NCBI GenBank assembly: GCA_965243605.1
Contig: CBDEVQ010000089.1
Coordinates: 1,462 to 65,461, forward strand
Direction: 5' to 3'
DNA from: Flavobacteriales bacterium
GTDB taxonomy: Bacteria; Bacteroidota; Bacteroidia; Flavobacteriales; CAJXXR01
DNA length: 64,000 bases
In this document: piece by piece, positions 3,404 through 59,843 of the stretch
How positions within the stretch are numbered: position 1 is the stretch's first letter
How the letters are laid out: every line of letters starts with the position of its first letter
Program-made: the position numbers and the translations under genes
Notes under the pieces: model-generated
What the model saw: the letters and a program-made list of their open reading frames with translations, nothing else
What the model was told of the DNA's origin: nothing
Database searches by the model: none

Positions 3404-4198
3404 TTATCGGTTTAGGGTTTGTGTTTTCATTTTTATGATTTGGTTGTTTTTTTCAAGAAGCATATCGTCTGTTATTCCAAGGGTCTTAAACCTAAATTTT
3501 CTGTTTCCAAAATGAACCCCTGTGAGCTTCCCTCTTCTTAGGTACGGTTTAATGTCGTTATGTTTCAAAGTGTGAATAAAACTTTCAATGTTTGGTGAAG
3601 CGTGGAAAATAGATTGGATCGTGTAATAGAGTGTTTCCTTATCTGATACAACATCCGTTCTTATAGATCTTCTTCGTTCGCTTTCTTTTATTCTTGTACG
3701 CTTATCTTTTTCATGCTGAACAAGTGAATGATTAAGTTCAGGGTAGTTCTGCTTTTGAAAATCCTGCATGTCTAATTTAAGTTGTGCAAATTCTTGTTTG
3801 CTTAAACGATTTGATTGCCCCATAAAATCTGTGCTTGCAATAACCAGGTGGACATGAAAATGATCTTTCTCCTGATGGAATACAACCAAAGCCAAGGTTC
3901 GCTTTGCTCTTTGTTTGATATACATCTTACTGATATCAATTAGTTTTTCTTTGTTTATATAAGGGCTTGATTCAGGAGAAAATGATAAAATTTCATGATG
4001 TAAATAGACGGCGTTCTTTCTGTTTATTTTTCGCTTTTTTGAGTTGTTTATAAATTGCTTTTGCCACATCTGCAGCGTATCACCTCTCAGTAATTGTTTG
4101 TGAATAATTTCCGCATTATGGTCATCACTCATTAGGTATTCTAATAAATACTTGAATGATGTTTTTCGCTTATGAGAAATGCTTTTTATAATCATCAC
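3404..4198 (-). CDS. Relaxase/mobilization nuclease (MobA/VirD2 family)
   Basis: The N-terminus MMIIKSISHKRKTSFKYLLEYL and the histidine triad HFHVHLVIAS are typical of relaxases. Sits next to MobC-like and T4CP genes. Confidence 0.85.
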   Translation of the reverse strand: MMIIKSISHKRKTSFKYLLEYLMSDDHNAEIIHKQLLRGDTLQMWQKQFINNSKKRKINRKNAVYLHHEILSFSPESSPYINKEKLIDISKMYIKQRAKRTLALVVFHQEKDHFHVHLVIASTDFMGQSNRLSKQEFAQLKLDMQDFQKQNYPELNHSLVQHEKDKRTRIKESERRRSIRTDVVSDKETLYYTIQSIFHASPNIESFIHTLKHNDIKPYLRRGKLTGVHFGNRKFRFKTLGITDDMLLEKNNQIIKMKTQTLNR

Positions 4199-4606
4199 TT
4201 ATTTACTTTGAAGTTGTCTTAGTAAGACTTCTAATCTTTCGATAATAATGTCTTGAGGTATTGATTCACTTTCTAGTTCGACTATCAAACTCACCAACAA
4301 GAATTCAAGTTCGGTAAGGTCGACGTGATCTAAAGAAATATGTTCCTTTATACACCGACTGATTGGAAGGTTTTTGTCTTGGGCTTTCTTTTTAAACTGA
4401 TTGTATTCCTTCAGAGAAAAGCTTATCGATACGCTTTTATTGTTTTTGGTAAATACCTCCTTTTTGTACGTTTTTCGATAGCATGCCCAATAGTAATCAC
4501 GGGCACTCTGTATGGATTCATGACTGCCATATTCCAAGATATCCAAAGCCTCTAGATACTCATAGATGGAGTCATAGTCTTGTGGTTGCATCTTACTATT
4601 CTCCAT
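4199..4606 (-). CDS. MobC-like relaxosome accessory protein
   Basis: Small protein immediately upstream of the relaxase. SISFSLKEYNQFKKKAQDKNLPISRCIKEHI resembles the RHH-type MobC signature. Its stop abuts the relaxase start. Confidence 0.6.
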   Translation of the reverse strand: MENSKMQPQDYDSIYEYLEALDILEYGSHESIQSARDYYWACYRKTYKKEVFTKNNKSVSISFSLKEYNQFKKKAQDKNLPISRCIKEHISLDHVDLTELEFLLVSLIVELESESIPQDIIIERLEVLLRQLQSK

Positions 4607-6161
4607 ATTTTGGAAATTTAATGTTGATGATCTTTTCTTCTTGTTTTGGATTTTCTTTCTTTTTGAAAGCGGATAGATCCAAGTAAACAGCAGTGTAGTT
4701 AGGTTGTGCTTTTGGATCCTCGTTTTCAGCCTGTGTTTCTCCTTTCATATTTAGAGCATCTACCATCCATTTTTGCTTGTAGTATGGGATTGTTTTCACC
4801 TTAAGTGGTTTTGCTCCACTTGGTATAATCAGAACTTGGTTTTTAGGCATAGTTCGTATTTCATCAGCGGTCATTAATCGACGTGTACGTGTGTGCCCCT
4901 TTTCATCTTCATATTCGTATTCACCAAGAATTTTAGAAAGGTTTTCGCTCTCATCAGTAAGTCCAGTGAAATACACTTTTACCCCTGCGTTGTTTAATAT
5001 CGTTTTGGCATTATAAGCTCCGTAATTCTCAAAAATCTGATTTTCAGACTGTAATACACCCAATATAGGAACCATGAATTTTCTCGCGTTAGAAATGATA
5101 TTTGCAAGGTTTGGCAAATACATCGAGCCCAATTCATCCGCTATGACTGAGATAGGCAAATCATTTTCATTTGGAAGCTCCTTATTAAAAACTGATGAGA
5201 AGAATTGCTCAAAAAATATCGAAATAATCTTTTGGTAATACACAGTATCTCCAAGCGGACATCGAATAAAAAGAGCCGTTTTTTGTGTTCTAAATGAATC
5301 AAAATCGACGGTATCTACACAGGTTAAGTTTTGAAGCTCTTGATCGTTTCCGATAAAACTCAAACTGGCTAAAGCTGAACTTACGATTGAAGCTCTTGTA
5401 TTTTCGCTATTCTTTAAAATTCCTTCTAGTTTTCGCTGTAAGGTTTCAGTAGCTTTTTCTTTAAATAAGGAACGAATCGTTTCTGACTCACTTTGCAGGT
5501 GTTCCAATAAATAATACACGTTGGCTAGATTTCTATAAATCTGAGATTCATTTTGAATAAGATATTCAATGCAAATAGAAATTAATTCTTCGGACTTCAA
5601 TGTCCAAAAATCAGATTTATCATTGGAGGTTCGTACAAGCATGGAGCTTACCTTGGCAATATCAGAGCTTGAGTTAATTCGTTTTAAAGGATTGTAGAAG
5701 AGTGATTTTTCAGGATTACCAAAATCAAGATATTTTACAACAAAACCCTTACTTAGAAGGTAATTTTCACTCTGCGACAATTCACCTGAATTATCGTTAA
5801 CAATCATCGAATTTTGGCAACGAAATATACTAGGAAAAATTATTGTAGTAGATTTACCGACACCACTAGGGGCTACACATATAACATTTTCTTGGCTTCT
5901 TTTAAGCGTCAAGGCTCTTTTTCCATCCAAAATATATCCCAGATGCTTCTTACGAATCAGCTTATGAGCCTTTCCAAACCCAGCCTCTAATTTATCTGAT
6001 TTGGTCATTAAGTAATCGCCTATATTTTCTAAAGTAATTTCTATCTGTTCACCTAAACTCACCAGTATTTCATATCCTGCTTCACAAATAGGCTGTGTTG
6101 CTTTGTATGCTTTTTTAAGCTTGGCTTTTGCAAAACGATAGTATATTTGTAACTTCTTCAT
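4596..6161 (-). CDS. Type IV coupling protein (TraG/VirD4 family)
   Basis: Walker A VCVAPSGVGKSTTIIFPS, Walker B-like VIADELGSM, and size and position next to the relaxase. Confidence 0.85.
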   Translation of the reverse strand: MKKLQIYYRFAKAKLKKAYKATQPICEAGYEILVSLGEQIEITLENIGDYLMTKSDKLEAGFGKAHKLIRKKHLGYILDGKRALTLKRSQENVICVAPSGVGKSTTIIFPSIFRCQNSMIVNDNSGELSQSENYLLSKGFVVKYLDFGNPEKSLFYNPLKRINSSSDIAKVSSMLVRTSNDKSDFWTLKSEELISICIEYLIQNESQIYRNLANVYYLLEHLQSESETIRSLFKEKATETLQRKLEGILKNSENTRASIVSSALASLSFIGNDQELQNLTCVDTVDFDSFRTQKTALFIRCPLGDTVYYQKIISIFFEQFFSSVFNKELPNENDLPISVIADELGSMYLPNLANIISNARKFMVPILGVLQSENQIFENYGAYNAKTILNNAGVKVYFTGLTDESENLSKILGEYEYEDEKGHTRTRRLMTADEIRTMPKNQVLIIPSGAKPLKVKTIPYYKQKWMVDALNMKGETQAENEDPKAQPNYTAVYLDLSAFKKKENPKQEEKIINIKFPKYGE

Positions 6162-8241: not shown

Positions 8242-9288
8242 TTGTATCAAAAAGTTTTACAATCTATTTCTTTTTTAGACTTTAATAATTTAAATGAAAA
8301 TCAAATTAAAAATTTAGTTAAAGTTAAAATATATGTTTACCATCGTCTTTTTAACTACCCAGCTGTTAAGTTAGCAATACATGAAACTCCTACTGTTCTA
8401 AGTGAATCTGAAAGAATTATTCTTTATATAGGTACAATACGTTACATACCTAATATCAAACACGAAGAATTTAATGAAATGATGAAATTATGTAACAAAA
8501 AACTAAAACAAACTAAAACAGTATTTTGGACCACTGCATATCTAATTCTTGAGTGTTTATACTTTTATAAAACAAACCCTAGTGATCCCTACAATAAGAA
8601 ACTACAAAATATATTCAAATATCATTTAAGTTTTGAGGATGAAAAATCAAACTTAGAAATATTAAATTCTGTATTTAGTTATCTTTACATCTACAATAAT
8701 CAAAAAAGAGCAGTTATAAAAGATGAAATAATAGCTACATCTAAAACACAAGTGTATTTCTTTTACATTCTGGGTGCTTACACATTAAATAGTTTTTCAA
8801 ATTTATTTAATGATAAAGATCCGACATTAGACTTAATCAAGCTTATGGGGGTTTTTAAAATGAAACATATTGACAGAAAATATTTATTTGAAGCTAATGA
8901 ACTGATTAATAAAATTACACTTAAATTTCCTAATTCTTCTGAAGCTCACTATCACAAATACTTTATATCTGATCATATAAAGAATGATAATGATAATGTA
9001 CTACATCTTGATAAATGTATTGAGCTTTCTAATAGATGGGAATATAAATATTCTAAATTAAGTCATTTTAAAAATAGTTTCTCAAATCATGAATTTACAT
9101 TGTTACAAAGGAAATATGCAACTGAGTGTACAAACTACAATAATTGGAGTAAGTATAAGTTATATGGTATACCCACATATTACAAACTCTTTTCTAACCT
9201 TGATTACACACTATTAGAAAATAATGAATTTGAATTGGGCACTAAAAGTTATAAAACCCTAATTATTGTAAAAAGAAGAGAGCTATAA
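8242..9288 (+). CDS. Hypothetical protein, probably 5'-truncated
   Basis: The ORF begins at TTG. The same frame is open back to 7852 with protein-like sequence but no ATG/GTG/TTG. Extremely AT-rich. Confidence 0.45.
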   Translation: MYQKVLQSISFLDFNNLNENQIKNLVKVKIYVYHRLFNYPAVKLAIHETPTVLSESERIILYIGTIRYIPNIKHEEFNEMMKLCNKKLKQTKTVFWTTAYLILECLYFYKTNPSDPYNKKLQNIFKYHLSFEDEKSNLEILNSVFSYLYIYNNQKRAVIKDEIIATSKTQVYFFYILGAYTLNSFSNLFNDKDPTLDLIKLMGVFKMKHIDRKYLFEANELINKITLKFPNSSEAHYHKYFISDHIKNDNDNVLHLDKCIELSNRWEYKYSKLSHFKNSFSNHEFTLLQRKYATECTNYNNWSKYKLYGIPTYYKLFSNLDYTLLENNEFELGTKSYKTLIIVKRREL

Positions 9289-9295
9289 GCTCTCT

Positions 9296-9826
9296 TCATT
9301 CATAAATTTTGGTTTCAATGGAACGCATTAAAGCTCTGCATAATTCATCTCCATCATCTTTAAATTCAAGATATTCTTTATATGCTTTTTCTGCATCATA
9401 CCTTGTAGATAAAGTAGAATCAAATTTCCAAAAACTCAACATTGATAAGTTTAATGTTTTATTTAAGGTTTCCGTAAGTTTTGCAATCTCGAATTTCTCG
9501 TTAGCATTAATATTAAAAATATCCTTAAAGTTGGGAGCTGAATAAATTATGACCATACGATCTTGTTTCCAGTCAGAAAATTCACTAACCCTTCTACTAA
9601 TTTTAGATTCTGAAATATCATCAACTGAAAAATCTTCTATATTTTCAATATGAATTAGTTCTTTTACATGCCCATGTTTATTATAAATTAGTGCCCAAAG
9701 TGCAGGTGTACCATGCAATTTAAACAATTGATGTAAATTAGGTTGAAAGGCTAGTTTTGATGATTGCTCTTTTGAAAATATTATTCTTGAAATTTGTGGA
9801 AATGACTGTATTTCTTGTATACACAT
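9296..9826 (-). CDS. Hypothetical protein
   Basis: ORF only; convergent with 8242..9288. Confidence 0.45.
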   Translation of the reverse strand: MCIQEIQSFPQISRIIFSKEQSSKLAFQPNLHQLFKLHGTPALWALIYNKHGHVKELIHIENIEDFSVDDISESKISRRVSEFSDWKQDRMVIIYSAPNFKDIFNINANEKFEIAKLTETLNKTLNLSMLSFWKFDSTLSTRYDAEKAYKEYLEFKDDGDELCRALMRSIETKIYE

Positions 9827-9933
9827 AGTTATTTTTTTTAGTTTCTAATTAAAAAATAACACAGTAAATATAACATTGTCAATATTCAAAAATATATTAT
9901 CCACAGCTCAAAGAGCTCGATACCAAAAACTAG

Positions 9934-9992
9934 CTAGATTGCGTATTTCATAGAAAAATCATCTCTTTATTTTCCGTGAAATACGCATCTAG
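9934..9992 (-). terminator. Long hairpin followed by a T-run, downstream of the helicase operon
   Basis: CTAGATTGCGTATTTCA (9934-9950) pairs with TGAAATACGCATCTAG (9977-9992). On the minus strand it is followed by CTAGTTTTTGG. Lies 23 nt after the stop at 10015. Confidence 0.5.
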
Positions 9993-10014
9993 CAAAGGAG
10001 ACCTTTTGAATCCC

Positions 10015-10899
10015 TTAATCCTTAACATATTTAATTACTGGCATAGACTTGTCAATCCCAATTATCAAGCTACCTTCAACTAGATTCTCAGTTAAAGTTT
10101 CCTTGTCTCTATGAACTACAGAGAACGTATGTCCTTGATTACTTCGTGGAATTCTAAATTTATCAGGCTTCTTCCACTCTTTGTTGAAAGGCCTAAAAAC
10201 TCTACTTAGATCCTCTAATTTATCCCACTCTAGCTTCTCACCCATAGGGTAATTAATTAACCTAAGTTGAATGGTTGGATATCCATCCTCTATGTCAATA
10301 TCTGGCATTTCACCAGGCTTCATCTGAGGCATTAATCTTAAGGGCTCCTGCTCTGGTTGCACTAGAACTATTGCCTTTGGAGCAGAATCAAGACCTTTAT
10401 TTTTCCAAGCAACATTATAAAATCTATACTCCATATCTTTAGTTATTACATATGGATTTAAGTTCATGTTTGAGTGCCTGAATTTTGACGTACCTCCCGG
10501 TAGAATAAAATGACTGCAAAAGTGTGTGCATAAAACATCATATTTATCATTTTGGGGAAACGACTTTCTATCAATAACATCTTGCAACCAAAATTCAGGC
10601 TCATAAGGAATTTGAAGTTCTGCAAAAAATGGAGTTTTTTTCTTTAAAGCAATGGCAACAAATTCAAAATATTTTGTTGGACCTAAGGCTGTAAACTCAA
10701 CTTTTGTATCCGCACTTTTGCCATCTTTATCCTTAAGAATACAATCTGGAGGATCGGATTCAGGTATATCTACCGTAAATCCATTCTTATAGCGTAAACC
10801 TATCAATGGAGACAAAAGATCAAGCGCCCATTTTTCATCTCCCTTTAATTCTCTGCTCATAGGGCTTATGTTCTCTTTGTTAATTTTATTCACTAACAA
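10015..10899 (-). CDS. Partner protein of the helicase-nuclease (294 aa), possible PD-(D/E)xK-like fold
   Basis: Overlaps the helicase stop by 14 nt. ESDPPDCILKDKDGKSADTKVEFTAL is only suggestive of a restriction-endonuclease-like core. Confidence 0.6.
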   Translation of the reverse strand: MLVNKINKENISPMSRELKGDEKWALDLLSPLIGLRYKNGFTVDIPESDPPDCILKDKDGKSADTKVEFTALGPTKYFEFVAIALKKKTPFFAELQIPYEPEFWLQDVIDRKSFPQNDKYDVLCTHFCSHFILPGGTSKFRHSNMNLNPYVITKDMEYRFYNVAWKNKGLDSAPKAIVLVQPEQEPLRLMPQMKPGEMPDIDIEDGYPTIQLRLINYPMGEKLEWDKLEDLSRVFRPFNKEWKKPDKFRIPRSNQGHTFSVVHRDKETLTENLVEGSLIIGIDKSMPVIKYVKD

Positions 10900-13800
10900 T
10901 AATATTAAGATTAATATCTGCTACTTCTTTTAAATAATTTTCTGTCACCCCTAATAAAGTCATAATAGATTCAGTAGTATTAGCTTTTGATAAACTAGGC
11001 TGTACTATGTAAATTTCAAATGTCATTGGTTTTCTATTTTTTGCTAAAAGCAATAACCTCTCCAAATCATCTTCAGTCCCTTTTTCTATCCTACTCCTTT
11101 CTTCACCTTGTCTTGTTTTAATTTTCCTCCTTAAAAGATGCTCGAAAAACTCAGTCCCTTTTTTATGCTTCCAATGAATAGACTTTTGAGCTTGACCACA
11201 AACTTCATAAAAATTGTCGACCCTCGTATTTACAGCGCCACCTTTTGCAAATTTTATATGATAGAATTCGACTTTAATTTCATTATCTAATTCTTTAATT
11301 GCCACCACATCCGCAATTTCTCCAGAATAATCGTCGTCATAAATAATATCAAAATCTAATTGTTTTAAGTTATCAATAACCTTATATTGTATTGAATTAG
11401 TTAACAACGGCCTAACATGTTGAGACTCTTTATTTATATCCACACCATGCCAATCCCAAACAATTAGTTTTTCAGCTGGGTAAGGTTGCATTATTTGTTT
11501 TAATTCAACATGTTCATTCCCCTGAAGAGTAGACCCATCAGCAAACCAGATCACTACAGGGTTTTCATTTAAATAGGATTCTAGATCAAGAGGCTTATTC
11601 CCCAAAACTATCTCAGATTTTACATCATTAGTTTTCACAACACGGAAATTTGGAAACCGCACATCCTCTGAACTTTTATCCATAAATAATTCTAGTTTAA
11701 ACTTAACTGATAGAGATGGGGTTACAACTTCAAAATCAATAGACCCAGTATTGTTTAGGTTTATCAATTGAATTGAGCAATTATCTGATCCAAATTCTAC
11801 ATTATTAACAACGAAGGATATTTTTGACTCAGCCAAATTATAAAAACTATCATCCCAATCAATATGAGTTGGATAAATTTTTGGAATTTCTGTTACATCC
11901 TTAGGGGTCAAGGTCTGCCTTAAAACTTGATTTGGATCTACACTATCATCATTCAGCTTCTTTCCAAGATTTTTACACCAATTTACAAAGCCTCTTAAGT
12001 CATCTCTTAAATAGCTCCATATACGTCCTTTTTTATAAGAACACCCCAGCGTTATTTTTTCTCCATCCTCATATCCTGACCCAAAAACGAAAGCTTTCTG
12101 CCCGCTCTGTTGTTCCGCCAGAGATAAGGCATCTTCTATATCCGTACCCACCCTCATTGTAAATCGTATTTTTCGATTTAAAAACTGTTTGAGACCAACA
12201 TTTTGAAGTGAAACACGATTAATTCCATGGAAACTTTTAAAAACGTTTAACTTATTGATAGGCTCTGCTGAATCATACAATATTGCATTAGCTAGTTTTC
12301 TATATGAACTAGACTTATCTGAACTATGAATGAAAAGTAAATCCTCACTAGTATCATAAAATAATACAGTTAGTTTCCAATCTAACCCAAAGACTTCCTT
12401 ATAATTAACCCAGTCAATACCTACCTTACTAGCGGTTATGAGTACTAAGGTATTTTCGCTAGTGTTTACATTCGGAAACTTATACTCTAACTCATCATAA
12501 TTCACTATACCCCTATTAAACCCTTTAAGATTAAACCTTTTACCAGGTTCATTATTCTTATACACAACAGCACTTAAAGCAAACCGTATATTCTGAAATG
12601 GTATTTTAGAGTTTTCTAGGTGTTGAAAACCATTCATAAATTCATTAAAATCAATTTGCTCTTCAATCTCCTCTTCACTGGAGATCGATAATAATGAATT
12701 CCAATTAGAATCTTGTGCATAAAGCTCACTTAGCTCATTCTCAGTATCGACATTCGCCAGATTTGCTATAAAACTAGCATTATTCAATTCGTCGTCAATT
12801 GATGTTCTTGTGAACCTACCTGCGAACTGAAGAGTAACTGGTAAACTTTTTCTTATGTCATGAAAGGCAGCCACTTTCAATTGCGGCAAATCAAACCCTT
12901 CACCTAACATATTCACTGCTACTATTATTTTATGCTCACCGTTTATTATAGATTCTAAAATTTCTTTTTTCCGAACAACAGATGAGTGTACCAAAACTGG
13001 ATTTAAATCAGTATATTCCTCATAAAGACTAAATACATGCTCTGCTCTACTTTTATTTTGACAACGTGCCATTAGAATATGATTATAACCATTGGAAATG
13101 TCGCTCCGTAAAATCTCAACTGCTTTTTCTGATATCAGCTTATCTGCTTTTTCAAAATCATATTCCCTTATTGGAATAAAGTTAATAGGCTTAAAATAAC
13201 CTTGCTCCTGTGCTTTTTTAAGAGAGAAATTAAATATTACCCTCCCTTCAAGTCGCTTCCTGTCATTTCTAAATGGAGTAGCTGTAAACTGCAAAACCTT
13301 GTTTTTGTCAAATACAGATCTTACTTTTTTCCATGATGACGCCTCAATGTGATGAGCTTCATCGATAAATATGTGAGAAAATTGCTCATTAAGTAAGCCA
13401 AGTGTTTCTATGTTATTGTTTGACAACAGATTCATAGTTGTAATAACTACGTTACAACTTTCAAGAAATTCAATCAACTCACCATTAGACTGAAAATTTT
13501 CTTTTAATAAGCCAACCTTAGGGTATAAAGTATTTTCTTCTAAAATACCAAAGTCTTTAAGTAATCCTAATTTTGAAAATTTGTTTCCAATTTGATTTCT
13601 TAATGCATCAGAAGGTACTGTAATCAAAAGCTTTTCACACTTATTTGCTGTTAATGCTGCTAACATTGTCTCAGTTTTACCAGTACCTGTCGGCATTACA
13701 ACTGTTCCTATTTCATTACCCACCTTAAGGTGACTTAGTATAGAATATAATCCTGCTATTTGAGGTTCCCTTAATCCATTTACAGAGTCAGTTTCTTCAA

Positions 13801-14146
13801 TGAAGTTAAAATTCCCTTCCCAAGAATCAGTAATTTCCTGATTTGAATAAGTTGCTAACTTAGGATGCTTAATCCATTGACCAAACAACACCTCATTGTT
13901 TTCAAATTTATCTAATGTTACCTTACCCTTAACCTTAATAACATACTCATAACCTCCTGGATCATATTCTAATTTTGTTACAAGACAATAATTTACTTCG
14001 TTAGATCTTATAATTGAATAGCCGCGATGAGAAGAAATAAACTCAAAATCTCCTTTTATTTCTCGATCCAGAAGTTGGGTTATAATATTTTTACACCCTG
14101 CTCTTTTCCAAATTGTGCTTTCTAATTTAGGTAGTTTTAATTCCAT
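10886..14146 (-). CDS. SF2 (ResIII/DEAH-type) helicase, 1086 aa, with long C-terminal extension (nuclease-like)
   Basis: Motif I VVMPTGTGKTETM, motif II IFIDEAHHIE, motif III QFTATPFRND, motif VI QFAGRFTR. C-terminal DDDYSGEIADVVAIKELDNEIKVEFYHIKFAKGG resembles a D..E..K endonuclease core. Confidence 0.85.
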   Translation of the reverse strand: MELKLPKLESTIWKRAGCKNIITQLLDREIKGDFEFISSHRGYSIIRSNEVNYCLVTKLEYDPGGYEYVIKVKGKVTLDKFENNEVLFGQWIKHPKLATYSNQEITDSWEGNFNFIEETDSVNGLREPQIAGLYSILSHLKVGNEIGTVVMPTGTGKTETMLAALTANKCEKLLITVPSDALRNQIGNKFSKLGLLKDFGILEENTLYPKVGLLKENFQSNGELIEFLESCNVVITTMNLLSNNNIETLGLLNEQFSHIFIDEAHHIEASSWKKVRSVFDKNKVLQFTATPFRNDRKRLEGRVIFNFSLKKAQEQGYFKPINFIPIREYDFEKADKLISEKAVEILRSDISNGYNHILMARCQNKSRAEHVFSLYEEYTDLNPVLVHSSVVRKKEILESIINGEHKIIVAVNMLGEGFDLPQLKVAAFHDIRKSLPVTLQFAGRFTRTSIDDELNNASFIANLANVDTENELSELYAQDSNWNSLLSISSEEEIEEQIDFNEFMNGFQHLENSKIPFQNIRFALSAVVYKNNEPGKRFNLKGFNRGIVNYDELEYKFPNVNTSENTLVLITASKVGIDWVNYKEVFGLDWKLTVLFYDTSEDLLFIHSSDKSSSYRKLANAILYDSAEPINKLNVFKSFHGINRVSLQNVGLKQFLNRKIRFTMRVGTDIEDALSLAEQQSGQKAFVFGSGYEDGEKITLGCSYKKGRIWSYLRDDLRGFVNWCKNLGKKLNDDSVDPNQVLRQTLTPKDVTEIPKIYPTHIDWDDSFYNLAESKISFVVNNVEFGSDNCSIQLINLNNTGSIDFEVVTPSLSVKFKLELFMDKSSEDVRFPNFRVVKTNDVKSEIVLGNKPLDLESYLNENPVVIWFADGSTLQGNEHVELKQIMQPYPAEKLIVWDWHGVDINKESQHVRPLLTNSIQYKVIDNLKQLDFDIIYDDDYSGEIADVVAIKELDNEIKVEFYHIKFAKGGAVNTRVDNFYEVCGQAQKSIHWKHKKGTEFFEHLLRRKIKTRQGEERSRIEKGTEDDLERLLLLAKNRKPMTFEIYIVQPSLSKANTTESIMTLLGVTENYLKEVADINLNIIVSE

Positions 14147-14454
14147 TTATTTTTATAATTAATGCTATAAATACATAATAACATATTAAAGTAATGCTAA
14201 AATTCTGTTTATTAATAGATTATCTATTAAATGTTTACGGACAAACATTTCTTAAAAAAATCCATAAAGATTCTTTTAAGAAAAATGAAAATTTACTTTT
14301 ACAAGTAAGTGTATCAAAAATAGTGTTTTAATTATTACATTCATGTGATGATTATCATAATTTAATTGTAATAACTTATTTAACAAAAAAATCAATCGTA
14401 TCACAGATCAAAAAGAAAAACACAGCTATTAACCATGTTCTTTTTCTTAATCAA

Positions 14455-14967
14455 CTATTCTCTCAAGTAATATGTTAGCCCCATACTCACCGCATCAAAA
14501 ATTCCTGCTCGGTGGTTTTCACTGAGCCATTTCTTACGCTCAGGAAAGGCGTACTTTTTAAGATCTGGATAAGCTTTAATAAGAACTTTTGAAATTTCAT
14601 ATTTTGTATAGGCATTATATCCACTAAATACTTCACGAATGAGCGTTCGTGAAAAGCGATGTATTTTTAACCCTCTATCCTTAGCAACATCTTCTATCTT
14701 ATTCACAAGCTTCTTCATTCGCTTCCCTGCTTGTTCTCCTGAGTCTCTCAGTAGTACAATGTCAGGTTCATAGAAATCCAAATACTTCTGGACACGCTTC
14801 TTCGCTCTTATATTGCATGCGGGTTGAACATAAGCTACTCCACAATCAACTATATCTTTTACGCTATGAAATAGAGCATATGCAATCCCCCATTGGTTTG
14901 GATAAAGAGCGAGTATGGTGCTATTATTCTTCACACTCCTGTGGGATAAGTTTTCGTAAAATATCAT
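14455..14967 (-). CDS. Hypothetical protein with RuvC/RNase-H-like pattern
   Basis: ILALYPNQWGIAYALF ... YEPDIVLLRD ... AGIFDAVSMGLTYY parallels RuvC strand/helix order, but the first acidic residue is Tyr. Confidence 0.45.
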   Translation of the reverse strand: MIFYENLSHRSVKNNSTILALYPNQWGIAYALFHSVKDIVDCGVAYVQPACNIRAKKRVQKYLDFYEPDIVLLRDSGEQAGKRMKKLVNKIEDVAKDRGLKIHRFSRTLIREVFSGYNAYTKYEISKVLIKAYPDLKKYAFPERKKWLSENHRAGIFDAVSMGLTYYLRE

Positions 14968-15277
14968 TTATTGCATTCTTTCTGCTTTCAGAATTATAGT
15001 CTGATTTTATAGACTCTATCTTTTCTAGAAGCTGAAAGCATTTGCTTTCTATTGATTCTCGTAAGCGTTCGTATTCTTCATGAATTATAGTAGGTATTGG
15101 CAAATCAAATAATATGTGGTATCCTAAAACTACTTTGAGCTCGGGAGATAAATTCTTTCCGTTCTCAAAGCGTGAAAGTTTACTAGGAGTTATTCCTAAA
15201 AGAAAGGCTATATCAGTTATCTGTAAGGCCTTTCTTCGCCTGTGAGCGGATAGGTGGTACTTTTTATATGCTTTCAT
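14924..15277 (-). CDS. XRE-family HTH regulator
   Basis: LQITDIAFLLGITPSKLSRFENGKN helix-turn-helix. Overlaps the next gene by 44 nt. Confidence 0.75.
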   Translation of the reverse strand: MKAYKKYHLSAHRRRKALQITDIAFLLGITPSKLSRFENGKNLSPELKVVLGYHILFDLPIPTIIHEEYERLRESIESKCFQLLEKIESIKSDYNSESRKNAINDILRKLIPQECEE

Positions 15278-15542
15278 GGTTAATCATTACGACAGTCGTT
15301 AATGGTTAATAATAGACTTAGGCAATGATTCTGTGTCAGCAGAAATTCATTGCCTTTTTCTATTCTACCCCTTATTGACAGACACTAAAGGCAAAGGAAT
15401 ATGCAGATCAAACTAATGAGCTTATAAAACAAAAAGTATTGTTACGATTTGTATTATGATTAGTTTAATATCTAATTAGTTTAATCGTGTTTCAATTTGT
15501 AACAGGATTTTTACCAAGAAAAAAAACACCTTTTTAAGATTT

Positions 15543-15890
15543 TTAATAGTCCAATAATGGCTTACTTGAATAGAATAATTTTGAGGCCATTTGTCTTTGC
15601 TTAGCTGTGAATACTTCCCTGCCCATTTCATTATAGATTTTTACAAGTTCCTTTCGGCATAGAGCATCTATTCCCTCCGATACAGATTTAGGTGACATGC
15701 CTGTAAGCATCGCAAATAGTCGTTGGGTAATCCATGCCCTTTCAACACGTTTACCTTTGTATTTCTTACTCATCATTCCAAATGTTCTTCTAATGATTAT
15801 GAGCAAGACTTTGGTTTCTGATTCAGATAATTTTTGTAATAGCTTATCAAAAAGAATGTTTGGTGTTTGAGTTGAATGTTTATAGTTCAT
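15543..15890 (-). CDS. Replication-protein-O-like winged-helix protein
   Basis: TQTPNILFDKLLQKLSESETKVLLIIIRRTFG...AWITQRLFAMLTGMSPKSVSEGIDALCRKELV matches the phage Rep-O N-terminal-domain pattern as I recall it. Confidence 0.55.
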   Translation of the reverse strand: MNYKHSTQTPNILFDKLLQKLSESETKVLLIIIRRTFGMMSKKYKGKRVERAWITQRLFAMLTGMSPKSVSEGIDALCRKELVKIYNEMGREVFTAKQRQMASKLFYSSKPLLDY

Positions 15891-15962: not shown

Positions 15963-16320
15963 ACGTTTGTAATGATTTTTTATAATGCTTAGTACAATTA
16001 TGCATATCCCCCTGAAATTACCTCAAAACAAAACGGCTGAATTTATCAAGATTTATAATCAAGTATTTGGTATTGTACTCAGCACTGAAGAAGCCAATGC
16101 TGAAGTTTATAGGTTACTCTCTCTGATTTCATTATTTACAGAAGAGTCGTAAATAGACCCAGTATGATGAGAGCTTTAGTCGTGATTTATTTACTCGGTT
16201 GATACGTGATATATTGTATATGCTACATAAGAACAATCCGATTTAAGCTAAAAAGGACAACAGAAGATTTTTTGTGTAGCAACTTAAATCCTAATTCTGT
16301 TGTTCTTTTTTATTACAATT

Positions 16321-18036
16321 ATGAAAACAGAAAATATTACATATTTTCTCTATGCAAGAAAGTCCAGTGAGTCTGAAGACAGACAAATGGCATCTATTAA
16401 CAATCAAATCGAAGTTGTTAAAGAATTGGCAAAAAGCAAAGGTATTGAAATTGCTGAAGTATTTGAGGAATCAAAATCCGCAAAAGCTCCAGGACGACCC
16501 GTTTTCAACGAAATGATGACTCGCATCGAACAAGGTGAAGCTGATGGGATTATTTGTTGGAAATTAAATCGACTTGCCCGAAACCCCGTTGACGGTGGAC
16601 GAGTCAGTTGGTTATTACAAAATCGAATCATTAAACATATTCAATGTAATAGCAGCAGCTATCGCCCAACGGATAATGTGTTAATGATGGCCGTTGAACT
16701 TGGAATGGCTAATCAATTTGTTAAAGACCTGAGTGTTGATATTAAACGAGGGGTTCATGCTAAGGCACAAAGAGGATGGTATCCTGCACCGCAACCACCT
16801 CTTGGATACAAACACAATAAGAGCTCTAAGAAAACGGTCTTGAGTGAAGAGATTATTCCAGACCCAATAACCTTTCCCGCTGTTAAGAAATTATGGAAAT
16901 TAATGTCTACAGGAGATTACACCCTTAGGCAAATCAAAGCCGTTGGAGACCAGCTTGGACTTAAGACTCACCGTAGGTCTTTTTTAAGCCTCTCAGGCTA
17001 CAACAGGCTATTTAAACACACTTTTTACCACGGAACGTTCCACTGGAAGGATGATAATGGAGAGTATATTAAATACAAAGGAAAACATAAAACGATGATT
17101 TCTGAACATGAATATAATAAGGTTCAAGAATCTCTTCTATCTAACATTACATCCAGCACACCCTCCAAATGCGAATTTAAATACAGGGGCTGGCTGAGGT
17201 GTGGCGAATGCAGTTCAATGATTACCGCTGAACGTAAAAAGCAAGCTCGATGCACAGGGTGTAATCATAAGTTTTCAATCATTCAGAAGCAAACTTGTCC
17301 AAAATGTAGATTAGAACTTAAGGACATGATTCAACCTAGTATTCTTGATAAAACGTATTATAGATGCACAAGAAGTAAAGTTTGTTCTCAGAAATATATT
17401 GAGGAAAGTAAATTAGAGGGTCAGTATATTAGTCTCATTTCCAAGCTCTATATTCCTGAAGCTTTTCAATCCTTTCTACTTGAATCTCTGGAGGATATTG
17501 AAAAAGAAGAAAACAAAGATTCCAAAGAGCTTCTTTGCTCCCTAGAAAAAGAAAAAAAACGTATTGAAAAACGTTTGGAGTCACTCGTATTAATGCGTGC
17601 TGATGGTGAAATTGAAAAGGATTCATTTCTTAAAAGCAGACTTAAATTAGAGAATGAATTAAAGGAATTTGAAAAACAAATTCACCAGATTAGTTACTCT
17701 ACTATTCACTGGAAAAAGGAGCTGAAATCTTATCTAGATATTGGAAAACAAGGGCTTAAAATTTTAAAATCTAATGATAAAAGGAAGATAAAGCGGTTCA
17801 TGAAGAAAATATCTTCGAACCAGACACTTTTTTCCAATTCCCTTTATATTACAACGTCTAAACCACTTTTAGCCATTGAATCATGCAAGGTAGCATTCAC
17901 TACCCAAAAACACACCTTCGAACCAAAAAACCCCCTTGTAAAACAAAGGGATTTGGATGATTTTGAGACTGGTCGTCTCGTTTGGTGGACAGAAGTACGC
18001 CAACTTCGAAAAGTCTTCATGTCACACCCACAATAA
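16321..18036 (+). CDS. Large serine recombinase (integrase)
   Basis: The resolvase catalytic region is YFLYARKSSESEDRQ ... GIICWKLNRLARN. It is followed by a recombinase domain, a Cys-rich zinc ribbon (CGECSSMITAERKKQARCTGCNHKF..CPKC) and a coiled coil. ATG at 16321 is preferred over the TTG at 16300. Confidence 0.9.
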   Translation: MKTENITYFLYARKSSESEDRQMASINNQIEVVKELAKSKGIEIAEVFEESKSAKAPGRPVFNEMMTRIEQGEADGIICWKLNRLARNPVDGGRVSWLLQNRIIKHIQCNSSSYRPTDNVLMMAVELGMANQFVKDLSVDIKRGVHAKAQRGWYPAPQPPLGYKHNKSSKKTVLSEEIIPDPITFPAVKKLWKLMSTGDYTLRQIKAVGDQLGLKTHRRSFLSLSGYNRLFKHTFYHGTFHWKDDNGEYIKYKGKHKTMISEHEYNKVQESLLSNITSSTPSKCEFKYRGWLRCGECSSMITAERKKQARCTGCNHKFSIIQKQTCPKCRLELKDMIQPSILDKTYYRCTRSKVCSQKYIEESKLEGQYISLISKLYIPEAFQSFLLESLEDIEKEENKDSKELLCSLEKEKKRIEKRLESLVLMRADGEIEKDSFLKSRLKLENELKEFEKQIHQISYSTIHWKKELKSYLDIGKQGLKILKSNDKRKIKRFMKKISSNQTLFSNSLYITTSKPLLAIESCKVAFTTQKHTFEPKNPLVKQRDLDDFETGRLVWWTEVRQLRKVFMSHPQ

Positions 18037-19179: not shown

Positions 19180-19989
19180 TTATGAAGTATGTTCGATATG
19201 TAGTGGATAGTTAGCTGTTAATACTTCAACCTTTCTATCTCGTTGTTTTCCATTTGTAGATTTTTTAGCAGATAGTGGTTTTTCAAAGTGTATACTCTGC
19301 CAATTATTTTTCTTGATAAATTCAGATAGAATATCACTTGGATATGAGCTTAAGAGAAACTTCCCTTTTACATTCTCCAAGCAGGATAATAGTTTGGTGT
19401 AGTCTTCTTCTGTATAGCCTCCATAGCTCCCCTGATTTGAATTAATGTATGGAGGATCAACATAATGGAAAGAGTCCAAGGTATCTCTTGCTTCTATAAC
19501 GGAAATGGCGTCTTTGTTTTCTATCTGAGCATGTTCAAGTCGATCGACTAGATCTGTATTAAAGATGAGTTTCTTGTTTCTCAGAGCCTTAACGCGTTTT
19601 CCATATTTATCATAGCCCCAAGACCCACCTGCCTTACAAGCAAATCCCATATTAGTAGAGATATAAAACGCCCATGCTTGTTGTAGTCTATCGAACAAAT
19701 GCGGCATCCTATAAATCGTATTGGCAACGATATAGCTCGAGCGTGAAAAGAGCGTGGATTCTATTTTCTTTTTTAGATTTACAAAGTCTGTTTTAAGAAC
19801 TTCATAAAAGTTAACAACAAGGGCGTTTGTGTCATTAATCGTTTCAGATTCTACGGATTGTTTTGCAAAGAATACCGCTCCTCCTCCAAAAAATGCTTCA
19901 GTATATATTCTATGGTTTGGGATTCTTGGAAGGATTTCCTTAAGCATATTAAGTTTTCCTCCGTAATAGGTTATTGCTGTCTTGGGCAT
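19180..19989 (-). CDS. Dam-like N6-adenine DNA methyltransferase (D12 class)
   Basis: The N-terminal YYGGK..L and FFGGGAVFF (AdoMet site) plus the catalytic HYVDPPY motif. Confidence 0.85.
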   Translation of the reverse strand: MPKTAITYYGGKLNMLKEILPRIPNHRIYTEAFFGGGAVFFAKQSVESETINDTNALVVNFYEVLKTDFVNLKKKIESTLFSRSSYIVANTIYRMPHLFDRLQQAWAFYISTNMGFACKAGGSWGYDKYGKRVKALRNKKLIFNTDLVDRLEHAQIENKDAISVIEARDTLDSFHYVDPPYINSNQGSYGGYTEEDYTKLLSCLENVKGKFLLSSYPSDILSEFIKKNNWQSIHFEKPLSAKKSTNGKQRDRKVEVLTANYPLHIEHTS

Positions 19990-20085: not shown

Positions 20086-21270
20086 CTATATTTCAAACTT
20101 GCTTTGGTGAATTCCTCTTGCAGAGAAAGCTCTAGATGGCGCACCTTGAATCATCATCTTGATATAGAATTCTTGGTTTTGAAGATTAATAAAGTCATCC
20201 GAGCAAAAGATGGGATGAAATTCTTTTTCCATAAGTTTTGCGTCTTGATAAGACAATCTAAAGGAAACAATGCTCCCCACGTTACCCAGTACAGCGTCTC
20301 TAATAGCGGGCTCTAGCTGGTTTAAGTACTGATGAGCCATAATGACTCCTATTTTGAATTTACGAAGCTCAGAAAGCATTTCTATTAGCGATAGGTTGGT
20401 ATAATTTTGAAATTCATCAAAGTATAGAAAGAATGGGCGGCGTCTTTCTTCTGGAGTGTCGATACGACTAAAAGATGCTGAGCTTAGAGCAGTCACCAGT
20501 AAAGAGGCAAGAATATATGCAGGCTCTTTCCCGATGCTTCCCTTTGATACATTAACCAGCAAAACCTTCCCTTCATCCATAATTCTTCGCAAGGAAATTT
20601 GCCTCTTGTTATCGATAAGGATTCTTTTGAGCGAAGGATACAACAAGAGCCCTCCAATTTTATTATAGATTGGCAGAAGATCGTTTTTGCTGTAGCTTGG
20701 AAATTCCTTATTCCAAAAATCAAGAATATGTTTATTTTGAACATGAGCTAAACAACGCGCTCGGAAATCCATATCGTGCAGAATCTTTGTGATATCTGAA
20801 AAATTAGAATCTGCTTGAACAAGGAGTGTTAAAAGTATATTTCGTAGAATGTGAGCCAACTTTATTCCCCATGCCTGTTTACCCCAAACCCTTTGAAAAG
20901 TTTCCAGGATACTTGATACAACTAAAGCTTGTTTTTCTTTTGATACTTTTCGAAGTGGATTATATCCAAAGCTCATGTTTGTGTCTGTTGCATCAAGGTA
21001 AATTAATTTACTTTTTGGAACTTGTGTTTTAACTTTTTGAATTAAGTCTCCATGGATATCAATAAGACATAGACCTCTTGAGTAGAGGATGTCTTGCAGG
21101 ATTTTTGTATGTAACAATGTTGTTTTTCCAGTTCCTGTTTTACCCAAGACATAGAAATGGTGTAAGCGATCTTTTTGTAATATTCCAAAAGATGTATTGG
21201 TATTTCGGAAATTGGTTTTACCAAAATATGAAAGTGAAGCCTTGAATTGCATGACTACATTTTTAATCAT
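20086..21270 (-). CDS. Soluble P-loop ATPase of the T4CP / TraD / HerA-FtsK type
   Basis: Walker A VLGKTGTGKTTLL, Walker B FFLYFDEFQNY, then LRKFKIGVIMAHQYLNQL. No N-terminal transmembrane segment. Confidence 0.7.
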   Translation of the reverse strand: MIKNVVMQFKASLSYFGKTNFRNTNTSFGILQKDRLHHFYVLGKTGTGKTTLLHTKILQDILYSRGLCLIDIHGDLIQKVKTQVPKSKLIYLDATDTNMSFGYNPLRKVSKEKQALVVSSILETFQRVWGKQAWGIKLAHILRNILLTLLVQADSNFSDITKILHDMDFRARCLAHVQNKHILDFWNKEFPSYSKNDLLPIYNKIGGLLLYPSLKRILIDNKRQISLRRIMDEGKVLLVNVSKGSIGKEPAYILASLLVTALSSASFSRIDTPEERRRPFFLYFDEFQNYTNLSLIEMLSELRKFKIGVIMAHQYLNQLEPAIRDAVLGNVGSIVSFRLSYQDAKLMEKEFHPIFCSDDFINLQNQEFYIKMMIQGAPSRAFSARGIHQSKFEI

Positions 21271-54627: not shown

Positions 54628-57046
54628 TTATTTTTTGGAAGTCTTTAAACTGTAGTTTAAGTTGAAAATGAAGTTTCGACCTAATTCATCAGCGAAGTAC
54701 CTCATCTCGTTAAGGTAACTTCTATAGGTTGTATTTAATATATTGTTAACTGAAATGCTCCCGTTAAACTGCTTCCATTTAAACCTCCAAGAAGCATTAA
54801 GCATAAGATATCCATCTGGAGCTTCTTTAAAATCAAAAATTTCGGAATTAGGAGATATAGCAATCGTACCATCTATTAAATCTTCTGGTTTTACCGTAAC
54901 GAGGGGCATTAAATTGTTTAAATGTATAGCTTGGTTTTAAAACTAAACTCGAAGAATCAAACTTCCAAAGCTTTCCTAAATTCCAATCGAGTTTATAACT
55001 GATTACAACTGGAGGTTGATTAATTAAAGCTTCTTTTTTATCTAGATTTTGTGACCATAGATAGCTAAGTCCAAATGTACCAGCGATATGTTCTGACCAA
55101 TCCGTTTTTAAACTATAGTCCGCTCCAACAAAGAATGCATCTGCCTGATCATAAATAAATACAGGCATTGGACCTCTAATGGTTCCAATAACTGCAAATG
55201 GACGATTAAAAATAAAGTTTTCTATATAATGAGAATACACCGTTACAGTATGTGCATTTCTATTTTTACGAACTTGATATTCATTAATAAATTTATATCC
55301 CTTTTCTGGTTGAACATTGCTGTTTTCCATTTTGATGACTTGGTTGGTTTTTAACGCATCTGATTCTGAAAAATGGTATCTTAATAAACCAAATGAGGTT
55401 TTATATCCGTGCTGACCAAAACTGTATAATTCTGCCATATTTGGCGTACGCCATGCTGTTCCTAAGTTTGTTCTAAATGTTTTGTTTTTTGATATTTTAC
55501 GTACATAACCTATAGATGATGTTACATTCGTAAAGCTATATTCGTCTTTAAAAATATCCTGATTCGTTTCTCGTCCTCTTACATTGTTTAATTCATAATC
55601 TAATCGGACTCCTGCTTCAAATGTATGTTTACCAACATTTTTATTCTCCGTTACAAATCCACTAAATCTAGATGTATTGTAGTTCGGAATTAAAGGGGTT
55701 GTTCCTGTACCAGAGTTATTATCGTTATTTTGATTAAAATACTGAACACCAACCAGTCCATTTAATTGTCTCCATCGAGGGTGTTTCCATTCCAATTGAT
55801 AATCGGAAGTCAATAAATCCAAATCTACAATTGGTCTATCTGCATTTCTTCTGACGTCAAATTCTTGTCTATTATTAAGTTGTTGCCCAGCACGAAACGT
55901 TAATTTCCCATCCTTAGAATACCACCAGTTAATCTCTACTTTACTAAAATGGTGTTGCGCTTGTTGATTGGGCTCATTAATATCATAGGAAAACGGCTTG
56001 ATAAATACAGGCTCTTCGGCATTAAGCGCTTTAATAAAAGCATCTCCACTTTCTGCTATCGAAGACCTTAACAAGGCTAATTTTTGATTGATATAACTAT
56101 AATGCAGTTTAAAATCCCAATTACCTTTACGATATCTTACGCCAAAATTAGCTGATGCTTCTTCTTTTCCAGAATTGGTTAACATATAATCTGGCGCATG
56201 TCTATCCCCTATTTTTGTATAATTTCCTCCTAAGTAATAACTCCAGTTTTCAAATCCTTCACCCACTTCTAGACTGGTATTAAAACCTCTACCATTGCTT
56301 TGGTATCCTGTTCCAGCTTCGGCCTTTAAGGGTTCATCTAAATATAAAGGGTTTGGTTGTACAATGATTGCTCCACCCAAAGCTTCAGGTCCAAAACGTA
56401 CACCAGAAGCACCTTTAATTACCGTAATGTTATTAGCCGAATTAATATCTATTTCGGGTGCATGGTCTGTTCCCCAATTCTGAAATCCATGTTTTAATCC
56501 GTTGTTTAATATTAGAATACGATTTCCATATAAACCATGGATAACGGGCAATTGAATATTGGTTCCCGCAGATGTTAAGGCCACACCTTGTTGGTCCATA
56601 AGTGCGGATGCAAGACTTTGGGTAGGATTACTTTTTATCTCTATTTTTTTTACGGCAACCTGAGAAATGGTTTTTGTTCCTACTTCTTTCTGTCGCTTCA
56701 CCTGAATGGTCACCATTTCCAGCTCCTGAACGTTTTCGGTGAGATAAATATGAGATGTTTTCCCATCGTGATTATGATAGTCGCATACAGAATTTGAATA
56801 GCCTACACAGGAAATAACCAAGGTATTACTATCTGTACATAAACCCTTAATTTCAAATTCACCGTTCGAATTGGTTGTGGTAAACCTTTCGGCATTAAGC
56901 ACCTCAACATTAACATATGAAATTGGCTGATTTGTCTCCTTATCGAGCACTCTACCGTTAACAGAATAAGAACAGCTGTCTATCTGAGCAAATACTACAG
57001 ATGGTAAACCAATGAGCAGATATGTGAGTATTAAAAGTATTCGCAT
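54628..57046 (-). pseudogene. TonB-dependent receptor interrupted by a 1-nt frameshift
   Basis: The 732-aa ORF has a CarboxypepD_reg-like N-terminus, a plug and a barrel, and ends in ...SYTFKQFNAPRYGKTRRF*. The overlapping 93-aa ORF continues barrel-like sequence (...LMLNASWRFKW...). The frames differ by one base around GGGG 54903-54906. Confidence 0.8.
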
Positions 57047-59770: not shown

Positions 59771-59843
59771 GGAAAGAGAGCTGGGTTCGAACCAGCACTT
59801 CCGGAAGTGAGGTCCAGCGCCTTCCAATTAGCTACCTCTTTCC
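59771..59843 (-). tRNA. tRNA-like gene with non-canonical anticodon loop (best fold gives UCA)
   Basis: The minus strand reads GGAAAGAGGTAGCTAATTGGAAGGCGCTGGACCTCACTTCCGGAAGTGCTGGTTCGAACCCAGCTCTCTTTCC. The T-arm GCTGG-TTCGAAC-CCAGC is perfect. There is a D-arm-like UAGCUAAUUGGAAGGC and a 7-9 bp acceptor. The anticodon stem is CTGGA/TCCGG with loop CCUCACU, which lacks U33 and a purine at 37. Confidence 0.5.

Follow-up and report, generated by a model that had tools for sequence, protein, structure and literature searches.

The locus described here lies in a window of 64,000 nucleotides (nt), by which we mean the whole stretch of DNA that was analysed (positions 1,462 to 65,461 of the forward strand of contig CBDEVQ010000089.1, assembly GCA_965243605.1, from a Flavobacteriales bacterium). 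It consists of a long gene for a superfamily 2 (SF2) helicase, followed on the same strand by a small orphan gene. An original prediction, made from the letters of the sequence, took the two for a helicase-nuclease cassette and a candidate anti-phage or anti-plasmid defence system of unassigned type. Both of the open reading frames (ORFs) on which it was built exist, at 10886-14146 (1086 amino acids, aa) and 10015-10899 (294 aa) on the minus strand. In our opinion the helicase is probably a defence gene that works by itself, and its small neighbour is best left out of the system. The features of the locus are as follows.

10886-14146, minus strand: the helicase gene, an ORF of 1086 aa that starts with ATG
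13847-14146, minus strand: N-terminal all-beta domain of the helicase, aa 1 to about 100 (strands predicted from residue 2 to 93, with a predicted local distance difference test score, pLDDT, of about 90)
12758-13777, minus strand: SF2 motor core, aa 124-463 (Pfam and invariant residues)
11432-12757, minus strand: middle region, aa 464-905, made up of a helical hairpin and then beta-rich domains, without a recognisable family
10889-11431, minus strand: C-terminal nuclease-like domain, aa 906-1086 (predicted topology and invariant residues)
10015-10860, minus strand: the small orphan gene, 281 aa from an ATG supported by its homologues (the longest ORF reaches 10899)
9933-9993, minus strand: terminator-like hairpin followed by UUUUU (-28.4 kcal/mol, z = -7.0; 0 of 200 shuffled sequences fold as stably)
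14147-14454, minus strand: AT-rich spacer of 308 nt upstream of the helicase, in which a promoter is presumed

The helicase gene is intact and retains all residues that are invariant in its family. Pfam places ResIII at residues 125-293 and Helicase_C (PF00271) at 355-448. Motifs I (MPTGTGKT), II (DEAHH), III (TATP) and VI (QFAGRFTR), which the original prediction had read directly, are real according both to these matches and to conservation: K157 of motif I, D262, E263 and H266 of motif II, T290 of motif III and Q440, R444 and R447 of motif VI are invariant among 54 family members. By profile as well as by fold, the solved structures nearest to the motor are XPB, RadD and SauUSI (7clg). The long extension predicted to follow the motor is there too. 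From residue 463 onwards about 640 aa of this protein match no Pfam family, and the C-terminal parts of 46 diverse members returned only noise against Pfam, with no DUF1837 among it. Searches of the PDB, with the single sequence and with a profile, found the motor only and gave no match whatsoever to the C-terminal 640 aa. Scans with Pfam (2025 copy), PADLOC 2.0.0 (2023) and NCBIfam (2026) likewise see the helicase core only, and PHROGs lead to the same outcome. Hence the helicase was rightly called unassigned, in the sense that PADLOC, Pfam and NCBIfam give it no named system.

The AlphaFold2 model of the helicase, for which the alignment of 54 sequences served as input, has a mean pLDDT of 80.4. 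Its parts are the all-beta N-domain (about 100 aa), two RecA-like lobes, a helical hairpin at residues 466-505 and beta-rich domains that extend to about residue 900; a loop at 649-684 in the middle region is of low confidence or disordered. A fold search with the full-length model returned helicase cores only (XPB, RadD, SauUSI, UvsW and UvrB). The N-terminal beta domain is possibly a recognition module.

The C-terminal domain is the part that bears on the question of a nuclease. Its predicted elements run as helix 919-928, strand 934-937, strand 947-952, strand 957-964 and helix 977-988, a predicted succession that agrees with the core of restriction-endonuclease-like (PD-(D/E)xK) folds. Twelve residues, D938, D939, E943, D946, H963, K965, G984, Q985, W992, R1007, Q1049 and P1050, are invariant in the alignment of 54 sequences and in 46 further, diverse C-terminal segments. 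The original prediction saw a D...E...K-like ending in this region, and it was correct as to a nuclease-like C-terminus. It erred in the choice of E960, which is variable; the conserved set is D938, D939, E943, D946, H963, K965 and Q985. Judging from conservation and predicted topology, the active site is likely formed by D946 at the start of strand 2 and by H963-x-K965 on strand 3, with further acidic residues just before. The middle catalytic position would thus be held by an invariant histidine, H963, where the canonical residue is acidic.

The family to which the helicase belongs is large. More than 5000 protein clusters are significant homologues, with 36-78% identity over the full length, and the best 120 matches, all full-length and 52-78% identical, come from Bacteroidota, Acinetobacter, Arcobacter, Pasteurella and Deferribacter. 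When a single genome of each species was scanned, the family turned up in at least 481 species, distributed over Bacteroidota, Bacillota, several proteobacterial classes, Campylobacterota, Patescibacteria, Planctomycetota, Poribacteria, Acidobacteriota and one archaeon. A search seeded with the copy from a Klebsiella plasmid revealed a second form of about 996 aa, which is devoid of the first 90 or so residues and occurs in Klebsiella, Salmonella, Raoultella, Pectobacterium, Serratia, Photorhabdus, Yersinia, Proteus, Vibrio, Shewanella, Aeromonas and Acinetobacter. Indeed, the lengths of the N-terminal region fall into two classes, of about 120-130 and about 40-60 aa, and the N-terminal beta domain is present in the form of about 1085 aa and missing from the gammaproteobacterial form of about 996 aa. 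In the databases these proteins are labelled "DEAD/DEAH box helicase" everywhere and nothing else, the sole exception being the Arcobacter porcinus copy, which one submitter named a Type IV methyl-directed restriction endonuclease. Papers about GAPS and about domain-centric discovery yielded nothing of relevance.

The family is also mobile and unevenly retained. It is matched by 218 plasmid records, 45 of them from Rhizobium; the four Rhizobium records that were examined hold a remnant ORF of 127 aa. We considered whether these short matches represent a stand-alone nuclease architecture and rejected the idea, since they are truncated remnants without D946. Elsewhere, too, copies of the helicase are often split, truncated or reduced to C-terminal remnants (for example at loci L008, L077 and L090 and in Acinetobacter clusters), which suggests frequent inactivation, as expected of a costly gene. 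Among 5426 complete E. coli genomes only 8-10 carry the helicase.

For 81 helicase loci we called ORFs and, taking on each side of the helicase the closest one that reaches 100 aa, compared them with each other. The flanking ORFs comprise 132 singletons, and the largest cluster has three members. The gene downstream of the helicase often lies on the opposite strand or hundreds of nucleotides away; in about 14 of 75 loci a gene on the same strand lies within 30 nt downstream. Behind helicases that are 78% and 75% identical to the one in the window, the next gene is a convergent ORF of 97 aa or a DinB_2 gene, and on a Klebsiella plasmid the helicase stands alone between IS5 copies.

A domain census of 143 immediate neighbours of the helicase in other genomes shows several with domains that are typical of defence islands and mobile elements. 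It contains AAA_21, PtuA-like or AriA-like ATPases (4), DRT3a-matching reverse transcriptases (3), PDC-S01 (3), PDC-M62A (3), MADS genes (3-4), phage integrases (3), S24/LexA (3), N6_Mtase/Eco57I (2), YhcG nucleases (2) and resolvases (2), and also AAA_14/DUF4143. Packed tightly behind the helicase are PtuA-like ATPases, reverse transcriptases, a kinase-deaminase, a SIR2-like protein, a Schlafen/AlbA_2-Fic protein and DUF2779. The copy of E. coli ECONIH5 (WP_001549206.1) lies 700 nt from a retron-type set of reverse transcriptase, PtuA and PtuB genes, in an island rich in insertion sequences (IS) and integrases (locus L095, 12001-18957). Such a sporadic, mobile and defence-flanked pattern is that of an accessory, frequently exchanged immunity gene and not of a housekeeping repair enzyme. 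The defence-island setting that had been proposed for this locus, as opposed to a housekeeping repair operon, is thus borne out for the helicase family by its neighbours elsewhere.

It may still be asked whether the helicase serves the mobile element as a helper in repair, recombination or replication, in the manner of RadD or XPB, and has no part in immunity. Its nearest solved cores do belong to the repair proteins XPB and RadD, and the close relative that adjoins a DinB_2 gene sits among ordinary genes. However, a helper of this kind agrees poorly with a gene that is sporadic within species, as the E. coli count illustrates, that is frequently a pseudogene or truncated, and that is surrounded by retrons, defence-associated reverse transcriptases (DRTs), Septu-like ATPases and integrases. 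Nor is the helicase linked to any conserved replication or transfer gene, and we find this explanation unlikely.

Another way to look at the neighbourhoods is that a conserved motor is combined with a variable downstream slot, into which ATPases, reverse transcriptases, SIR2-like genes and orphans of 270-316 aa are plugged; the small protein of the window would then be one of these cassettes. The roughly 14 loci of 75 with a closely spaced same-strand gene would fit such a design, and the downstream genes are indeed of many kinds, several of them Pfam-less and 270-316 aa long. Against it, the downstream gene is in many cases encoded on the other strand or begins hundreds of nucleotides off, and some copies of the helicase are alone between IS elements or among housekeeping genes. 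Further, the tightly linked neighbours are independent defence genes (DRT, PtuA-like and SIR2-like), and dense packing of islands explains their position. We therefore judge a variable slot to be decidedly unlikely.

The small gene requires a correction before it can be discussed. Its longest ORF, 10015-10899 on the minus strand, gives 294 aa from a TTG codon. All five relatives of the protein (276-287 aa) start at the residue that matches the ATG at 10860; because of this the real product is most likely of 281 aa, and the two genes are 25 nt apart. The 14-nt overlap stated in the original prediction is consequently an artefact of taking the longest ORF: with the starts of the homologues, a spacer of 25 nt separates the stop codon of the helicase from the ATG of the small gene on the same strand.

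The protein of 281 aa has no match in Pfam or PADLOC (both at E <= 1), in NCBIfam or in PHROGs, nor in the PDB by sequence. Only five relatives exist among 5.8 billion proteins. When 1.84 billion representative proteins were searched with a profile, there were 10 matches, all of 282 aa or less, and therefore no fusions to the helicase. The structural model, built from six sequences, has a pLDDT of 81.7 and a predicted template modelling score (pTM) of 0.80, and its predicted topology is helix 7-23, strands 28-31, 40-44 and 52-59, helix 62-72 and strand 78-85. E9, D39 (in PPDC), E55 and K73 are invariant and are placed where a nuclease site would be; there is no lysine at position +2 after E55. 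Fold searches were weak, with best E values of 0.37 (PDB) and 0.12 (BFVD), none of them significant. The top ranks in the PDB were mostly EcoRV and also Hjc, and in BFVD the names NOV_C, VRR-NUC and restriction endonuclease were scattered among unrelated proteins. Going by the model, a restriction-endonuclease-like fold is probable for the N-terminal half of the small protein. An alignment by hhalign of the small protein with the C-terminus of the helicase is not significant (probability 7%, P = 0.005, 38 columns). The columns so aligned hold a feature common to the small protein (10015-10860) and the helicase C-terminus (10889-11100), on the minus strand, namely a helix followed by a strand that ends in (I/L)VQP(G/E/S); the resemblance is curious, as both look nuclease-like.

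Where relatives of the small protein have a readable context, the neighbours are diverse. One relative, 56% identical, is divergent from a 1274-aa Upx-like (PF28173) defence gene (locus L085, 3884-8837), which hints that the small orphan may itself be a defence-island gene. The second lies between a fumarate-reductase-type Fe-S subunit gene and a GyrI-like gene, the third amid unknown genes and the fourth, in Neptuniibacter, beside unrelated genes. No helicase of the family is near any of these four. Conversely, BLAST and a profile search at maximum sensitivity over six-frame ORFs found no small protein in about 85 helicase loci, and it is not beside the helicases of 78% or 75% identity either.

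In the window itself, the hairpin 3' of the small gene closes the transcription unit. It had been described as a strong terminator, and its folding energy and U-run agree with that description. Since the small gene is 25 nt behind the helicase and ahead of this terminator, the two are probably co-transcribed here. Only three sequencing runs contain the locus, and none was identified as RNA. The idea that the genes have their own AT-rich promoter region fared less well. The AT-rich spacer of 308 nt is there, but sigma-70-like promoter matches in the region (30, against 23.9 +/- 4.1 expected) are not above chance, and the sigma-70 consensus is the wrong test, being unsuited to a host that is probably one of the Bacteroidota, to judge by two proteins encoded in the window, a SusC-like receptor and one with a type IX secretion system (T9SS) sorting domain.

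It was proposed originally that the genes form a two-gene system. In its strict form, this would be an obligate system in which the helicase is sensor or motor and the 281-aa protein a second, nuclease-like effector, as in a reversed Hachiman. In favour of it, both genes are on one strand, only 25 nt apart, and share one strong terminator at the end of the small gene. So speak also the PD-(D/E)xK-like N-terminal half of the small protein, with E9, D39, E55 and K73 invariant, and the one homologue that adjoins an Upx-like defence gene. Nevertheless, the pair was found nowhere else, neither in the approximately 85 helicase loci, with the closest helicases included, nor in the four readable contexts of the relatives, nor as fusions. 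Moreover, the helicase has a conserved nuclease-like domain of its own. Hachiman is a conserved two-gene pair of HamA, a DUF1837 nuclease, and HamB, a helicase. The present locus resembles it in having a helicase with a putative PD-(D/E)xK-type nuclease and in its defence-island setting, and differs in that the nuclease-like domain is fused to the helicase and the adjacent small gene is not conserved. Membership in Hachiman was rejected, because neither DUF1837 nor the HamA or HamB models match and there is no conserved co-occurrence; the original prediction, too, had set Hachiman aside. The pair being unique to the window, we regard a two-gene system as very unlikely. That two genes of a single genome are closely spaced and end in a common terminator is insufficient for calling them a system, and it was comparative context alone that exposed this pair as accidental.

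We thus favour, and hold to be reasonably probable, the view that the helicase is a single-gene helicase-nuclease of a large, unnamed and horizontally mobile family, that it acts alone, most likely in anti-phage or anti-plasmid defence, and that the small gene is not part of it. The mechanism could be imagined as follows. An SF2 motor like that of XPB, RadD and SauUSI would use ATP for translocation on DNA or for its remodelling, and would be coupled to a C-terminal PD-(D/E)xK-type domain that cuts DNA with an unusual set of residues, D938/D939/E943/D946 followed by H963-x-K965. The N-terminal beta domain, together with the beta-rich middle region of about 440 aa, would choose the target. As to how self is told from non-self, we infer that one of two kinds of discrimination must apply, because no methyltransferase accompanies the family: the enzyme may be modification-dependent, as Type IV enzymes such as SauUSI are, or may respond, like Hna and Hachiman, to DNA structures or proteins that a phage induces. 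The small gene would be an unrelated and extremely rare orphan that by chance lies 25 nt behind the helicase. The intact gene, the order of its domains, the conserved residues, the stand-alone distribution, the setting in defence islands and mobile elements and the absence from the libraries are observed facts, while nuclease activity, a role in defence and the way of choosing targets are deduced.

A bolder proposition can be made, and we make it only tentatively, being somewhat more inclined to doubt it than to believe it. The family of about 1000-1090 aa would be a new and very widespread single-gene immune system with a non-canonical D...HxK nuclease, whose N-terminal and middle domains provide a new, methyltransferase-free discrimination between self and foreign DNA.

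In our view, the helicase is best compared in function with SauUSI-type Type IV enzymes, Hna and HmaA, and it appears to be a member of none of these groups. SauUSI carries a PLD nuclease at its N-terminus and a DUF3427/SRA-like reader at its C-terminus. The likeness is one of architecture and stand-alone distribution, in that a single polypeptide would combine a nuclease, an SF2 motor and extra domains for DNA recognition and has no methyltransferase. The SauUSI core 7clg is among the best profile and fold matches to the helicase, with only the motor aligning, and PADLOC mREase_IV is a weak match to the motor. In contrast to SauUSI, the nuclease-like domain of the helicase is C-terminal and putatively of PD-(D/E)xK type, and Pfam scans find neither PLD nor DUF3427.

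Hna, a broadly distributed and stand-alone protein of 845 aa, joins an N-terminal DinG/XPD-like SF2 helicase to a C-terminal PD-(D/E)XK nuclease and acts as a single-gene abortive infection system (PMC13381803). The helicase in the window is similar in being a one-protein, stand-alone SF2 helicase with a C-terminal PD-(D/E)xK-like domain. It differs in its motor, which is of the Helicase_C, XPB/RadD-like kind in a protein of 1086 aa, whereas Hna consists of ResIII and Helicase_C_2. It also adds the N-terminal beta domain and the 440-aa middle region, and the two proteins have no detectable homology outside the motor. Solved Hna (PDB 9YKJ / 10UJ) was not among the PDB profile or fold matches, although it is uncertain whether the searched copies held these entries of 2026. 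Membership in Hna was rejected on motor type and length; the original prediction had set Hna aside as well, since it lacks a partner gene. HmaA unites a Snf2-type motor with a C-terminal NOV_C/DUF3883 domain of the PD-(D/E)xK superfamily, and its single gene is sufficient for defence (PMC11232893). The helicase would share with it the single helicase-nuclease gene and a C-terminal domain of PD-(D/E)xK type. It was rejected as a member, there being no match to Snf2-rel_dom, NOV_C or any PADLOC Hma model.

Restriction systems were compared as well. Type III Res proteins, of about 1000 aa, have a ResIII-type motor and then a C-terminal endonuclease domain, and the helicase is like them in its ResIII motor and C-terminal nuclease-like domain. 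Type I and Type III systems need methyltransferases. The original prediction had pointed out that none is adjacent here, and this is correct for the window. Three candidates of this group were rejected. For Type III Res there is no adjacent Mod in the window and nearly none at other loci, and no Res model exceeds its cut-off. For Type I HsdR the EcoAI-type model scores 28.9 bits against a cut-off of 550, and no HsdM or HsdS is nearby. For PbeABCD/Dnd-linked restriction, PbeA and TIGR04095 cover the first helicase lobe only (38 bits against a cut-off of 600), and companion genes are lacking. That the helicase is an orphan or degenerate Type III or Type I subunit, with its methyltransferase elsewhere, for instance the D12-class enzyme at 19180-19989, is highly improbable: the Type III Res layout, the weak helicase-lobe matches to HsdR/EcoAI and dnd-restriction models and a Dam-like methyltransferase on the same element would agree with it, but these matches are confined to the motor and fall well short of the family cut-offs, the PDB profile matches do not include EcoP15I Res, N6_Mtase domains occur in only 2 of 143 immediate neighbours, and 5 kb, with a recombinase gene and other ORFs, separate the methyltransferase from the helicase.

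Several points weigh against a single-gene defence nuclease, and they deserve to be stated together. No known nuclease was matched significantly in sequence or in fold, be it by Pfam (n = 46), by the PDB profile search or by the whole-model fold search; the proposed nuclease assignment draws on predicted topology and conserved residues only, with a histidine where an acidic residue is canonical. A role in defence is suggested by the company that the gene keeps, as taken from the census of immediate neighbours and not from a calibrated defence score. A literature search returned no paper citing the accessions that were tried. PADLOC 2.0.0 dates from 2023, and a system named later could be missed. 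Finally, given the 25-nt spacing and the one terminator after both genes, a local functional link of the pair is possible.

The family has members in Bacteroidota, Acinetobacter baumannii, Klebsiella, Salmonella, Vibrio and E. coli, that is, also in clinically important species and their plasmids, and it could thereby affect phage therapy and plasmid spread. If it proves protective, a common single-gene system that current annotation tools have missed would be added to the defence catalogue. The category of helicase-nuclease defence already has several characterised examples; the unassigned domains and the histidine-containing nuclease site would, if our reading of them is true, offer a fresh case of how a helicase-nuclease chooses its target.

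The locus was predicted to lie on a mobile element, and the surrounding genes (a relaxase, two ATPases resembling type IV coupling proteins, a large serine recombinase and a Rep_O-like helix-turn-helix (HTH) gene) agree with this.

3404-4198, minus strand: MobA/VirD2 relaxase
4596-6161, minus strand: TraG/VirD4 coupling protein
14924-15890: HTH protein and Rep_O-like protein
16300-18036: large serine recombinase
19180-19989, minus strand: D12-class (Dam-like) N6-adenine DNA methyltransferase
20086-21270, minus strand: a second, shorter and TrwB-like, coupling-protein-like ATPase

The element also encodes a DUF2958 protein. No mating-pair genes were seen in the examined part of it, which suggests that the element is mobilizable rather than self-transmissible, and megablast of the element against plasmids gave no match. 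The D12-class methyltransferase is solitary, without a recognisable restriction partner beside it, and may be an orphan or anti-restriction methylase. Downstream of the helicase and the small gene, at 8242-9826, are orphan genes with a GC content of 24-28%, an ORF of 348 aa on the plus strand and one of 176 aa on the minus strand; neither matches Pfam or PHROGs.

Farther along the window, two minus-strand genes (54848-57046 and 61489-62694), for a TonB-dependent receptor of the SusC-like kind and for a protein that bears a C-terminal T9SS sorting domain, indicate a Bacteroidota host. The only tRNA call in the window, made by ARAGORN at 59771-59841 on the minus strand, is a tRNA-SeC with anticodon TCA, and this may be a false call. 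Beside the mobile element, at 24047-46703 on the minus strand, giant ORFs follow one another, with lengths of 2021, 2857 and 2192 aa; SpvB, FG-GAP and RHS repeats are combined in the first, and the second has RHS repeats. This series looks like a Tc-toxin-like (TcB/TcC-type) or polymorphic-toxin locus.

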